From positions 1,736,001 to 1,800,000 of the forward strand of contig CM102283.1 in the NCBI GenBank assembly GCA_046563655.1: a stretch of DNA of 64,000 nucleotides. Direction: 5' to 3'. The DNA is from Yuukianura sp. NJ FZ-2021 (taxonomy: Eukaryota). A program made the translations under genes and the position numbers. Of the stretch, positions 2,660-55,580 are shown one piece after another. Every line of letters starts with the position of its first letter. Positions within the stretch are counted from its first letter, which is position 1. Below the pieces are notes generated by a model. It saw only the letters and a program-made list of their open reading frames with translations. It was not told the DNA's origin and did not search any database.

Positions 2660-3700
2660 CGCGAAAATGTTGCCACGAATGTTAGGATTACTTTTTGGTG
2701 GGATTCATTGGGGCATTCATGTGAAATTGAAAACTAGAACCAGTTGAAGTTGAGATTACATGAATTTTTCACTTTTTCAAGAATTTCAAGAAACACGAAT
2801 TTTTCACTTTTTCAAGAATTTCAAACAACTCTGAAATTTTTTTTTCCCAGAGCTACTGCCGCCTGGGCCTTCCACCAAAATGTTGCCACGAATAGTGGGA
2901 TCACGTTTTGGTGGGATTCATTGGGGCATTCATGTGAAATTCAAAACTAGAACCAGTTGAAGTTGAGATTACATGAATTTTTCACTTTTTCAAGAATTTC
3001 AAGAAACACGAATTTTTCACTTTTTCAAGAATTTCAAGAAACACGAATTTTTCACTTTTTCAAGAATTTCAAACAACTCTGAAATTTTTTTTCCCCAGAG
3101 CTACTGCCGCCTGGGCCTTCCACCAAAATGTTGCCACGAATGGTGGGATCACGTTTTGGTGGGTTTCATTGGGGCGTTCATGTGAAATTCAAAACTAGAA
3201 CCAGTTGAAGTTGAGATTACATGAATTTTTCACTTTTTCAAGAATTTCAAGAAACACGAATTTTTCACTTTTTCAAGAATTTCAAGAAACACGAATGTTT
3301 CAGTTTTTCTAGAATTTCAAACAACTCTGAAAATTTTTTTTCCCAGAGCTACTGCCTCCTGTGCCTTCCACCAAAATGTTGCCACGAATGGTGGGATGAC
3401 GTTTTGGTGGGTTTCATTGGGGCGTTCATGTGAAATTCAAAACTAGAACCGGTTGAAGTTGAGATTATATGAACTTTTCATTCTTCAAGAATTTCAAGAA
3501 ACACGAATTTTTCACTTTTTCAAGAATTTCAAACAACTCTGAAATTTTTTTTTCCAAAGCTACTGCCACCTGGGCCTTCCACCAAAATGTTGCCACGAAT
3601 GGTGGGATCACGTTTGGGTGGGTTTCATTGGGGCGTTCATGAGAAATTCAAAAATAGAACCACTTGAAGTTGAGAAAAACGAATTTTCTCACATTTGAAA
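2660..3700. repeat. Tandem satellite of about 210-250 bp units (about 4.5 copies) with internal 33-bp subrepeats
   Basis: gaaatt(c/g)aaaa(c/a)tagaacc recurs at about 2724, 2936, 3184, 3433 and 3643; internal ttcaagaaacacgaatttttcactttttcaagaat repeats. Confidence 0.9.
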
Positions 3701-38805: not shown

Positions 38806-49666
<10,861 letters not shown>

Positions 49667-51038: not shown

Positions 51039-53203
51039 ATGAGTGTTGTCACAAAGATGTCTACAGGAGCAGAACCACCGATGTCATCATCTCAGCCCAC
51101 TGGAGGAAATTCTAGTCAGAAGGTTTCGTCATCCTATACTCGTAATCTTCCCAAAGAAGCGATCAACCTCTTCGCATCACTTCGGATGGAACATTTAGTT
51201 GCCGGAGTTTCTGGAGGTGTCGCTTCGACGTTAGTGCTTCATCCGCTGGATTTAATCAAAACACGATTCGCAGTTAGCGATGGTCTCACTTCTCGTCCTC
51301 AGTACAAAGGACTCTTACATGCTTTTACATCAATCTTGAGGGACGAGGGTGTACCGGGGCTTTACAGGTATGAAAGTATCGCAGTATCCTTTAATTAGGA
51401 GACTGTAGTAGGGTCATACTGTATTTTTGAATGTGTCATTTCAAGATTTATTTGGTTTTCAGGGGCGTAACACCAAATGTTTGGGGTGCTGGAGCCGCTT
51501 GGGGTCTCTACTTTTTATTTTATAATTCTCTGAAGACTTGGCTCCAAGGTGGAGACACCAAGACGCATCTAGGAGCTTTAACACATATAACGATTGCCGC
51601 TGAAGCAGGACTTTTGACACTGGCAATGACTAATCCACTCTTCGTAGTCAAAACACGTCTCTGTCTACAATATGGTGCTGCGCCGGTCGCCGTGCCCGTT
51701 TCTACCGTTGTGGGTTAGTTGAACAAAAAAACTTCAGTTTCAATTAGTTCAATATCAATGTTGAGTGGTTGTAAATACTCTAGCCATCTATATTTTCGGT
51801 ATCCCAAAGTATCAGTAGGTTAATGTAACTTTTAATGTTTCCAGGCGGAACCGAAGCTGGACTGGTGCAGTACAATGGAATGACTGATGCTCTCAGGAAA
51901 GTTTGGAAACTTGAAGGATTTCGGGGTCTTTACAGAGGTTTTGTTCCTGGCATGTTCGGTGTATCACACGGTGCTATACAGTTCATGACTTACGAAGAAA
52001 TGAAAACAGTTTATAATCGATACAGACAACTTCCGATTGATGCCAAGTTGGTAAGTTTCTAAAGTTAAGATTCGCGTTCTGCTAAGTTAAGGTTTTGCTT
52101 CTTTCTGAAGAGTTTGTGTTCCTACGACTGTTTTCAATCGTGTTTTTATTTTCCAGACCACTGTTGAATACTTATCGTTTGCCGCCGTTTCGAAACTGAT
52201 TGCTGCTGCCTCGACATATCCTTACCAAGTTCTTAGATTTCGACTCCAGGACCAACATCGTTCTTACAACGGAGTGTGGGACGTCGTCCGCCAAACGTGG
52301 AGGTATGAAGGTGTTGCTGGATTTTACAAAGGGCTGTATCCATACCTCCTCCATGTTACTCCAAATGTGTGTCTAGTTTTTCTCATCTACGAAACGTTTA
52401 CACAAGACAGCTGAATCCTAGTCTGCCAACCTCTGACCTCAATCCTTTAAATTTTCTGTTTCAAAGGCATTTCCCTATGTGAAGTTTCCCGTTTTACTTT
52501 GTATCTAGCCGTATCCATTCCATCCTTCCTCAGGATGTTTTTGATCAAAAACACAACTTTTTTTTAAATCCCTACTCAAAATCTGATTCCGTCTTCCAGT
52601 ACATATGTATACCGTAACTGCCCAATTTTTAGTAAGTAGACCAATAGGATTTAAAACTTCTGTTGTTGTTTCGATAGAAATTTGGATAAACTTGTCTGGT
52701 AGCCCTTCTCTCCTTTTTAGTTCAATTCTACTGTAGTTCCTTCCAATTTTGCTAGACTCATGAATTAATTTAAGAACCGCAGGTTCAATCGCATTGTAAT
52801 TTTTAAAAAGTCGAAATAAATTGTAAACCAAGTACGCAAAATTTAAAAACGAAATCTTTTACTTCGAGTTGGCTATCGGTTGTTCAGAAGAGAAAGACAC
52901 GGACAAGTTTAGCTGAATTTCTGCAGAAATTTTGGTAAACTTTCGAATTTTCGGAGATGACTAGGTTAGGTTATGCTGTTACAGCTTTCGCAAAAGTTTT
53001 GCTTTCGTTTTCGAAGAAAAAGTTGTCGGTTGATAAAAATTTTGATTTTGGTTTCGTTTTGCAGGGGCGAAGGATTCACTGGATTTTACAAAGGAATTGT
53101 TCCTAACTTACTCCGCGTTGTACCAGCTACAGCAATTACGTTTGTGGTTTACGAAGAAACGTCGGCGTATTTGACTTCACTGAGGAAACCAAGCAAGCCT
53201 TAA
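51039..53203 (+). CDS. SLC25A32: Mitochondrial folate/FAD carrier (SLC25 family) with two alternative C-termini
   Basis: Exons 51039-51367, 51463-51713, 51845-52050, 52157-52302, then either read-through to TGA 52414 or splicing to 53065-53203. Motifs [69 protein letters not shown]. Confidence 0.9.
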
Positions 53204-53390
53204 GTACTTCACTGGACGCACGAACTAATTCAGTAGTTAATTAATTGTCAGTGGAAAGCGTTAAATACAGACTTGGCAAATTGAGAATCACAACTAAATC
53301 TTAAATTCTAAGATTCTATTATGAAATGCTGTCCGTTATTGATCACATCCGCAACCATCCACATTAGCAACCAACGCAATTTTTTGTTTG

Positions 53391-53883: not shown

Positions 53884-55580
53884 ATGGCCGGTGAAGGGCG
53901 ACATCCGCGACTGGGCTACAACTTGTACTCCTTCTCCACTGCCTTCTCTCGGAACGACGCCAGTCGCAATGTCATGAGCTGGACACCACTTCGTCCAGGC
54001 ACCGTTCAATCCCCGGACACTCAGAGTTCGTCACCCAACACACTTTTTGGCGGGGGAGAAAATGAAACGGTACGGCCAAGCACCGCACGCAGCTTCCATG
54101 ATCATTTCACGACTCCGGCGACTCTGCAAGCACATCATCGTGGCCTGGGCGATAGACAGAGTACCATGAAAAGTCCAATGAGTCCGCTGGACAACACTTA
54201 TCCCCCTGTCGGACGATACTTGATGTCATCTTCTCCTGGGCCACTGGGGTCGTCAGTTCGGAACAAGTTTGAGCCGCGATTCCGCGTCATGCGCGCGTGT
54301 TGCCAAATTGAGCCGATTCCGATCAACATTTTCTGCTGGGGGTTGGACGGTATTGCGAAGCTGAACGAAGGAGTCTTTGGGGAAGTCTATGTTGGACAGT
54401 TCAATCACAGTCCAGTCGAGAGCGTTTACAAAGTGGTGCCAATTGAGGGGTCAATCACGGTCAACGGCGAAGTGCAAAAACGATTTGACCAAATTGAGAC
54501 GGAACTTCGCGTGTCCCAGCGTCTCAACAGTCTCAAGGAGGGCGGGCAAAACAAATGTGATGGATTCTGTCAGCTGTTTCGTGCTCGCGTTCTTTCTGGC
54601 GCTTACCCTGAAGTGCTTGTCCGAGCTTGGAAGAAGTGGCATCGTCAACATCGTATGGCTAACTAAAAGTTAAACTTATGTTAAACTTCCTTCAAGTTAA
54701 CTTACTAAGTTAATTGAATAATTAACTCCTAACTTTTGTATTTTTTGTCCAGAATCGGAGAACGACGTGCCGAACTTCGGAGAAAATCAGCTGTATGTTG
54801 TTTTTGAGTACGAACACTGCGGAACTGACATGGAGAGTTTCTGTTTCCGGAATGCCGAACAAGCATACATGACTTTACTGCAGGTATCGTTTTTCACAAA
54901 AAAACGTTTTCAAATTGTTGTTTTTCGTAACTAATTTGAATTTTTGAAACAAGGTGGCCTTCTCACTCGCCGTTGCAGAAGCGGAAGTGGACTTTGAACA
55001 CCGTGACTTACACTGGGGAAATATCCTGGTCAAGCCAACGGACAAGGTCAAGCTGGACTTTCGTCTGGAAGGAGTCAACTACGCCGTTCCTTCTGGAGGA
55101 CTCAAGATGACCATCATTGACTTTACGATGTCACGGTGCAGTGACGAGGACGGCCAACCAGTCTTTGATGATCTCCAGAACGACGAAACGCAGTTTGCCT
55201 ATTCTGGGTCCGAGTACCAGTTTGAGATTTACCGCAAAATGCGAGCCATCAACAAGTAATACTTCCGGCAGCACAAATACAGTATTCCAGCATGGAAACA
55301 TTTTTTTTTCATTTTTTTAAGCAACAACTGGAGTGACTTTCACCCACGGACGAACACTTTCTGGCTCCACTACGTCGCTGACAAGTTGCTCCAAAAGGCC
55401 AGCTACTCCGAGAAAGTGTCTCGACGACACAAAGTCTATCACAAGATGATCAAGGATGTCATGGATCAGATTCAGAACTTTGCCTCCTGCACTGACTATG
55501 TCAAGACGCTCACTCGCTATGTCACCCCCGGACAAACCGTAACCACTTCGGGACACCCACCTTCCGCTCCACGCAACTGA
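53884..55580 (+). CDS. Haspin: Haspin-family Ser/Thr kinase
   Basis: Exons 53884-54652, 54753-54883, 54954-55255, 55322-55580. KLNEGVFGEVY, KVVPIEG, SENDVP, FEHRDLHWGNILV, IIDFTMSR, YQFEIYRKM, FHPRTNTFWLHY. Confidence 0.92.

Follow-up and report, generated by a model that had tools for sequence, protein, structure and literature searches.

Results

An SLC25A32 gene with two homologous ends

The window analysed here comprises 64,000 nucleotides (nt) of contig CM102283.1 of Yuukianura sp. NJ FZ-2021 (GenBank assembly GCA_046563655.1, positions 1,736,001 to 1,800,000). On its + strand, positions 51039–53203 contain a four-intron gene orthologous to SLC25A32, the mitochondrial carrier of folate or flavin adenine dinucleotide (FAD), which could be completed by either of two versions of transmembrane helix 6. 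The coding part of exon 1 (51039–51367) begins with the ATG at 51039, holds helix 1 of repeat 1 with the PLDLIKTR signature (Pfam Mito_carr, E = 3e-13), and is followed by a phase 2 5′ splice site, CAG|GTATGA, after 51367. Exon 2 (51463–51713) supplies helices 2 and 3 with the motif NPLFVVKTR, exon 3 (51845–52050) the end of repeat 2 (helix 4), and the part of exon 4 common to both isoforms (52157–52302) helix 5 and a matrix helix, ending in ...VVRQTW and the AG of a split Arg codon.

It is at this codon that the two isoforms part. TGG (52298–52300) is followed by AG (52301–52302) and then by GTATGA (52303–52308), an alternative 5′ splice site that lies within the codons for Arg-Tyr-Glu and is the same hexamer as the exon 1 donor. 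Read-through past 52302 adds 36 codons before a TGA at 52412–52414, giving end a (52303–52414), a version of helix 6 with His (codon 52352–52354). Splicing of 52302 to 53065 restores the Arg codon from AG plus G and adds 45 codons before a TAA at 53201–53203, giving end b (53065–53203), a version of helix 6 with Arg (codon 53114–53116). The sequence between the two ends (52415–53064) would be 3′ untranslated region (3′-UTR) in the a mRNA and intron in the b mRNA; it closes with the pyrimidine-rich tract and CAG acceptor of exon b (53040–53064), which are weakly conserved with L001, one of three related loci described below. The isoforms are 347 (a) and 356 (b) amino acids long, have 310 residues in common and contain no internal stop. 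An earlier, sequence-only reading of this DNA had placed the choice at TGG AG|GTATG (52302/52303), with the acceptor at 53065, and both its coordinates and its description of splicing against read-through proved exact.

All five pieces of the gene (exons 1, 2 and 3, exon 4 plus end a, and end b) match the Pfam family Mito_carr (PF00153; cut-off 22.3 bits, profile length 96 positions), and the gene shows the three tandem repeats of the family, each with a Mito_carr match. The scores were 68.9 bits for exon 4 plus end a (profile positions 5–88) and 42.9 bits for end b alone (positions 58–93). Ends a and b, each covering the second half of the profile, are identical at 15 of 29 residues (E = 3e-11), a homology well beyond chance, which bears out the earlier proposal that both are complete, homologous ends of carrier repeat 3. 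The signature P-x-[DE]-x-x-[KR] of the odd-numbered helices is matched in helix 1 (PLDLIK), while helix 3 (PLFVVK) and helix 5 (PYQVLR) depart from it, through Phe and Gln, respectively; relatives depart likewise, except for the Phe. This Phe, encoded by TTC at 51643–51645 in exon 2, is Trp in 241 of the 249 relatives with a matched motif, and L001 keeps the Trp. The Trp of the helix 3 signature is a hallmark residue of the folate carrier, and Phe in the window is a rare change there.

The named matches listed were all annotated as SLC25A32, mitochondrial folate transporter or FAD carrier. No identical protein was found in a collection of 5.8 billion, and over exon 4 plus end a the best match reached 80%. 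Among named organisms, springtails are nearest: isoform b is 76.6% identical to the protein of Orchesella dallaii and 74.3% to that of Allacma fusca. The isoforms show 73–77% identity to springtail proteins over about 300 residues, and end b is 79–80% identical to b ends of springtails and of some further sequences.

Conservation of the layout and of both ends in related loci

Three related genomic loci came from a scan of metagenome contigs, with an identity of 87% for L001 and 73% for L002 and L003; the common part of exon 4 is likewise 87% identical to L001. In all three, exon 4 is contiguous with an a-type end, which is followed by a stop codon, 280–500 nt, a pyrimidine tract with CAG, and a b-type exon, and in each the donor, as GTATGA or GTACGA, is kept within the Arg-Tyr-Glu codons. 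The stop codon behind end a, in the window as in L001–L003, rules out a and b within one protein.

Between the window and L001, the proportions of nonsynonymous (pN) and synonymous (pS) differences were 0.073 and 0.629 in the common part of exon 4, 0.080 and 0.697 in end a, and 0.139 and 0.638 in end b. These values indicate that both ends are under purifying selection, with synonymous sites near saturation between the two sequences. Since pN is far below pS in both ends, both have been kept as coding sequence in this lineage.

L001 also has an extra intron within the helix 3 signature, where exon 2 matches in two pieces (1728–1922 and 2101–2148); the window lacks this intron. The split codon varies too, reading Ser in the b form of L001 (AG|T), and in Paramacrobiotus it encodes Ser in b and Arg in a.

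Residues that distinguish the two versions of helix 6

Residues were counted in distinct tails, 82 of type a and 123 of type b, with the His/Arg position numbered 0. Val at +1 and Pro at +3 are common to both types, as is Tyr-Glu at +12/+13 (Tyr in 78 and Glu in 82 of the 82 a tails; both in 123 of 123 b tails). Elsewhere the types differ: position −3 is Tyr in 82/82 a tails and Asn in 108/123 b tails; position 0 is His in 80/82 and Arg in 115/123; position +4 is Asn in 82/82 and Ala in 116/123; position +6 is Cys in 80/82 a tails and Ala, Cys or Met in b; and position +8 is Val or Ile in 82/82 and Thr in 120/123. By their spacing, positions −3, 0, +4 and +8 should lie on one face of an alpha-helix. 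After Tyr-Glu, a tails run on for a median of 6 residues and b tails for 13. The two a tails with Ala at position 0 are both from tardigrades (P0049 and P0084, PYLLAVTPNVC). Position 0 varies in vertebrate paralogs too: three marsupial proteins annotated as ‘mitochondrial folate transporter/carrier-like’ (P0210, P0229 and P0234) are b-type with Thr for Arg (NL[MI]TVTPACC).

His66 of the exon 4 plus a product aligned with Arg294 of yeast Aac2 (4c9g), and Arg17 of end b with the Arg of FLRLG in helix 6 of UCP1 (8g8w); these arginines of Aac2 and UCP1 are the helix 6 binding-site residues (contact point III). The alignments agree with the suggestion of the sequence-only reading that the His/Arg exchange sits at the binding-site position of helix 6. 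Structure prediction treated the two ends alike. For a scorpion isoform pair, the AlphaFold2 models of a and b had a mean predicted local distance difference test score of 88.4 and 87.9 and a predicted template modelling score of 0.84 and 0.83, respectively, with helix 6 at residues 288–309 (a) and 288–314 (b) and six long helices plus matrix helices in both. Given this equal confidence, both ends are predicted to complete the six-helix bundle.

The codon after the split offers a possible trace of the donor itself. Where a donor GT is embedded as in the window, the codon that follows the split Arg/Lys codon must start with T. Of the a tails, 73 of 82 have F, L, S, Y, C or W there, compared with 57 of 126 among the b tails. 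This bias fits a widespread embedded donor, short of proof.

Distribution and age of the twin ends

When 237 related proteins were classed by tail pattern, 102 had an a end only, 121 a b end only (pattern P-N-L-L-R-V-x-P-A), four an a end followed by a b end, and ten fell outside the patterns, being b-like variants by eye. The four fused models come from Cotesia, Trachymyrmex, Anopheles christyi and the clam Tegillarca. Ten clusters with RefSeq ‘isoform’ entries were examined for a/b pairs, and seven contained pairs from one gene that are identical over 256–309 residues and then split into a and b at the ...TW(R) codon. Such pairs were found in eight species: a mite (Dermatophagoides farinae), two wasps (Belonocnema kinseyi and Aphidius gifuensis), two scorpions (Centruroides sculpturatus and C. 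vittatus), a tardigrade (Paramacrobiotus metropolitanus), an oyster (Ostrea edulis) and a chiton (Liolophura sinensis). Pairs from near species split at the same codon. Of the three clusters lacking a pair, that of Aethina has isoforms that are both a and differ at the N-terminus, that of Daphnia has isoforms that are both b, and that of Anopheles aquasalis has a single member, an a-type isoform X1; isoform X2 of Anopheles moucheti is b-type. Anopheles is thereby the dipteran closest to Drosophila for which both types were seen; a search with the Anopheles b end returned four proteins, two of them named Anopheles and none named Drosophila. Named a-type proteins also occur in annelids (Dimorphilus, Paralvinella and Capitella) and a snail, and many beetles, moths and flies are annotated with a only.

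A maximum-likelihood tree of 33 helix 6 segments (32 columns), the inner forks of which were mostly unresolved, separated the 14 a rows from the 19 b rows by one split with support of 100/98; the a branch is long, and the fungal, fish, lizard and starfish rows fall among b. The simplest reading is a single duplication, no later than the common ancestor of arthropods, tardigrades, molluscs and annelids; b would be the ancestral type and a the derived one. That the twin ends are old and conserved, as the sequence-only reading had suggested by way of putative twin ends in the Drosophila ortholog, is strongly supported by the RefSeq pairs in eight species, the pairs from near species, the tail counts, the layout of L001 and this split.

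A phmmer search of 1.84 billion representatives with the a end as query yielded 1600 matches (E ≤ 0.001); the a motif was present in 44 of the top 150. In several divergent fragments with this motif, the a end is preceded by unrelated, intron-like residues, a hint, and only a hint, that end a may be a separate exon in other lineages and its fusion to exon 4 derived.

Two further observations concern the annotated relatives. Spiders have two SLC25A32 paralogs (P0030/P0173 and P0109/P0137); for each of them, an a end is seen in one species and a b end in a closely related one, so the twin ends seem to have outlived gene duplication there. RefSeq isoform X3 of a gall wasp and two scorpions (P0249, P0262 and P0258) has a few unrelated residues after ...TW(R) and no helix 6, and may be a truncated product or an annotated unproductive transcript.

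A candidate RNA stem around the proximal poly(A) signal

The stretch from stop a to exon b contains a single AATAAA/ATTAAA hexamer, AATAAA at 52815–52820. The donor GTATGA at 52303 and this hexamer, both ahead of the distal exon, give the locus the sequence motifs of a composite terminal exon. The hexamer lies in the loop of a possible long-range stem whose 5′ arm, box 1 (52668–52698), is conserved with L001 and whose 3′ arm, box 2 (52900–52930), pairs with it. L001 likewise has one AATAAA/ATTAAA before exon b, at 3135, also within the loop of a stem. Apart from the acceptor region, the two mutually complementary boxes are the only blocks of the intron that can be aligned between the window and L001. 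A box-1-like copy, box 3 (52924–52942), is found in the window only; it could form a local hairpin with box 2 (17/19) and so compete for it.

Stems were tested by an ungapped-stem score against 200 dinucleotide shuffles per sequence. The window stem (52668–52698/52900–52930), with 23 Watson–Crick and five G-U pairs of 31, is the best of its intron and was reached by 1 of 200 shuffles; the L001 stem (3047–3069/3202–3224), with 19 and two pairs of 23, is also the best of its intron and was reached by none of 200. Both are present in the minimum free energy and centroid folds. RNAduplex of the intron halves gave values matched by 43/300 and 149/300 shuffles; it pairs whole halves and is hence unsuited as a test of the stem. 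No Rfam family matched 52300–53300 at E ≤ 1.

Neighbouring features

Upstream of the carrier gene, positions 48936–49666 (+ strand) belong to a voltage-gated cation channel and encode its C-terminal part (GPHH, 34.5 bits; IQ weak at 18.3 bits, below the cut-off), and downstream, 53884–55259 (+ strand) encode a haspin-like kinase (75.9 bits). Between the end of the carrier gene and the start of the haspin-like gene sits an inverted repeat (53391–53410/53512–53531) with 20-nt arms that are 95% complementary, 101 nt apart and each contain TGACGTCA; a small mobile element is one possible identity, a pair of promoter sites resembling cAMP response elements another. The longest antisense open reading frame (ORF) between the two ends, at 52508–52858, gave no convincing Pfam match, the best reaching 14 bits against a cut-off of 24.2. 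A conserved upstream ORF is reported for the fly ortholog CG8026; tblastx and blastn comparison of the region upstream of the gene in the window with L001–L003 gave no match that would indicate such an ORF here.

Discussion

The arrangement described above suggests that one SLC25A32-type carrier gene would give rise to two proteins, alike except for helix 6 and the C-terminal tail. With the donor at 52302|52303 left unused, translation would run into end a and stop at 52412, and the mRNA would either end at the AATAAA at 52815 or keep the intron; use of the donor would join exon 4 to exon b at 53065. As the hexamer of this donor is that of the constitutive exon 1 donor, isoform a would need cleavage and polyadenylation, or intron retention, before splicing takes place. 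The scaffold of helix 6 is kept in both ends (Val +1, Pro +3 and Tyr-Glu +12/+13), and one helical face, that of the binding-site arginine, is replaced, a for b, with Tyr for Asn at −3, His for Arg at 0, Asn for Ala at +4 and Val or Ile for Thr at +8. When the stem 52668–52698/52900–52930 forms, the proximal poly(A) signal would be looped out, and splicing to b would probably be favoured; in this way the stem may steer polyadenylation against splicing.

Because both ends are under selection and are conserved, it is highly likely that both are used in this organism. Because the replaced residues share the binding-site face and are nearly invariant across phyla, we further propose, with a probability of roughly 0.65, that isoforms a and b differ in transport properties (substrate selectivity or transport mode) and not merely in expression. 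A bolder version of this proposal would have protostomes divide two folate/FAD-carrier jobs between the isoforms by exchanging the entire face of helix 6 that holds the binding site (Arg, Asn, Ala and Thr against His, Tyr, Asn and Val), with the exchange predating the split of arthropods, tardigrades, molluscs and annelids and the ratio of isoforms set here by a stem that hides the proximal poly(A) site; taken as a whole, this scenario is rather unlikely. The particular assignment of ‘folate versus FAD’ to the two isoforms is a guess and pure conjecture.

Several observations weigh against this account. The use of both ends in this organism is predicted from its DNA, the RefSeq isoforms that pair a with b elsewhere are computed models, and the Daphnia annotations show b only, both isoforms there being b. 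The substrate difference is deduced from residue positions and helix periodicity. The AATAAA at 52815 is a sequence motif only, L002 and L003 have no AATAAA, and no AATAAA/ATTAAA occurs within 700 nt past stop b. The stem rests on two sequences, which provide no covariation evidence: the changes in its arms between the window and L001 are one-sided, pairing-preserving or at existing mismatches, and none is a double compensatory change. The z-score of the whole-region fold for the window is −0.26. In L002 and L003, no stem above chance was found, theirs being reached by 95/200 and 179/200 shuffles; the stem, if functional, would be a lineage-specific layer.

An alternative explanation of the twin ends is that both isoforms are made and handle the same substrates. 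The duplication would then serve regulation, be it through different 3′-UTRs, through expression in particular tissues or stages, or through effects of the tails on protein stability, import or the binding of partners. The two mRNAs would indeed carry wholly different 3′-UTRs, the tails are unequal (the medians of 6 and 13 residues after Tyr-Glu), and the a and b models are equally confident. What such regulation leaves unexplained is the invariance of Tyr at −3 and Asn at +4, and the near-invariance of His at 0 and Cys at +6, in 82 a tails from several phyla, residues that are unlike those of b and lie on the binding-site face; nor does it account for a long and well-supported a branch. We regard regulation without a difference in transport as unlikely. 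Less probable still, and by a wide step, is the use of a single end in this organism, the other being a leftover in the form of a decaying duplicate or incidental read-through. Annotation with one type does occur in some lineages, b in Daphnia and a in many beetles, moths and flies; yet here both ends are intact with canonical signals, pN is far below pS in both at a pS of 0.64–0.70, as in the constitutive exon 4, and the layout is kept in L001–L003. A difference in transport between two expressed isoforms is the reading that we favour.

The boxes call for a separate judgement. They may be no more than the terminal inverted repeats of an old miniature inverted-repeat transposable element (MITE) that plays no part in RNA processing, in which case the strength of the splice and poly(A) sites, together with trans factors, would decide between the ends. 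Arms of 23–31 nt around 130–200 nt of A+T-rich sequence are MITE-like, L002 and L003 do without the boxes, and double compensatory changes number zero. On the other hand, the 64-kb window contains no further copies of the boxes, which speaks against a recent mobile-element family: at ≤3 mismatches there were three matches (the two arms and one other), where chance alone would give 2.5. Moreover, the arms alone are conserved with L001 and the interior is not, despite near-saturated synonymous sites, and the changes in the arms preserve pairing. We consider a MITE origin without function less likely than not; it bears on the stem only and leaves the two isoforms untouched.

The two forms of helix 6 matter beyond this locus in several ways. 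A natural variant in which the putatively cavity-facing side of helix 6 is exchanged together with the binding-site arginine, and which selection has maintained in several phyla, points to residues that set specificity, and the a/b pairs, identical elsewhere, offer paired proteins for transport assays. If the isoforms do divide the work, each pair would be a natural experiment naming the residues that decide the cargo of SLC25A32. Among mitochondrial carriers, the locus would also be a second entry on the short list of those whose alternative segments are homologous; in this case they are 3′-terminal and may be under the control of RNA structure. In addition, automatic gene models mishandle it, with four fused a plus b models and many species represented by one form only; tables of SLC25A32 orthologs and analyses of residue conservation therefore pool two types of helix 6.

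Relation to known systems

The carrier belongs with SLC25A32, MFT and yeast Flx1, being an ortholog by best matches and names, having three Mito_carr repeats, and carrying in b a helix 6 like that of vertebrate, echinoderm and fungal members. What sets the protostome gene apart from human SLC25A32 is end a, a second helix 6 whose binding-site position is occupied by His. For the human gene, a 2020 review gives three RefSeq transcript variants, only one of them protein-coding, for 315 amino acids. According to two reviews, the substrate of SLC25A32 is disputed among folate, FAD and flavin mononucleotide, as is import or export (PMC9311062; PMC10526428), and the former, from 2022, states that direct transport measurement with isolated Flx1, SLC25A32 or the Arabidopsis homologue had not yet been reported. 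Our search of the literature found no description of alternative helix 6 or C-terminal isoforms of SLC25A32, although the supplementary tables of papers on exon duplication and RNA structure may list the fly ortholog; a study of intron positions in the SLC25 family has no occurrence of ‘alternative splicing’, and what is accessible of the literature on fly CG8026 holds nothing on C-terminal isoforms. What is new is that the pattern is recognised, dated and interpreted structurally, together with the RNA stem; the transcripts themselves are already present in the RefSeq annotations of several invertebrates.

The closest parallel within the family is the phosphate carrier SLC25A3, whose isoforms A and B arise from the alternative homologous exons 3A and 3B. 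There, too, a mitochondrial carrier has a duplicated, homologous coding segment that is swapped, and the properties of the isoforms differ. The SLC25A3 exons, however, are an internal, mutually exclusive pair near the N-terminus in vertebrates, whereas the pair described here is terminal, sets read-through and polyadenylation against splicing, affects helix 6 and a binding-site residue, and is found in protostomes. Ancient homologous alternative exons are known in protostomes from tandem duplications such as that in Ca-α1T, which, according to a study of such events, were kept in arthropods, nematodes and molluscs, are absent from chordates and are more than 610 million years old (PMC9741552). 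The carrier resembles these events in the age and homology of its exons, and differs in that the proximal copy is fused to the upstream exon. ‘SLC25’ is absent from the main text of that study; its supplementary lists may name the fly gene.

For the choice of ends, an experimentally established counterpart is intron 4 of Drosophila Nmnat, where conserved complementary boxes choose between a proximal terminal exon with its poly(A) site and a distal acceptor, as disrupting and compensatory mutations demonstrated (PMC2724269). Nmnat has been cited as a splicing/polyadenylation switch, and suppression of intronic polyadenylation by long-range structure is put forward as a general hypothesis in the paper that cites it so (PMC8052449). 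The likeness lies in a long-range stem around a proximal 3′-end option and in two C-termini as the outcome. The boxes of Nmnat flank the proximal acceptor, whereas those of the carrier gene flank the poly(A) signal of a composite terminal exon, have a putative function, and are conserved in two sequences only. A donor inside a terminal exon that competes with an intronic poly(A) site is the arrangement by which the secreted and membrane forms of immunoglobulin mu are made. The two mu ends are unrelated in sequence, whereas the ends of the carrier are homologous copies of one transmembrane helix.

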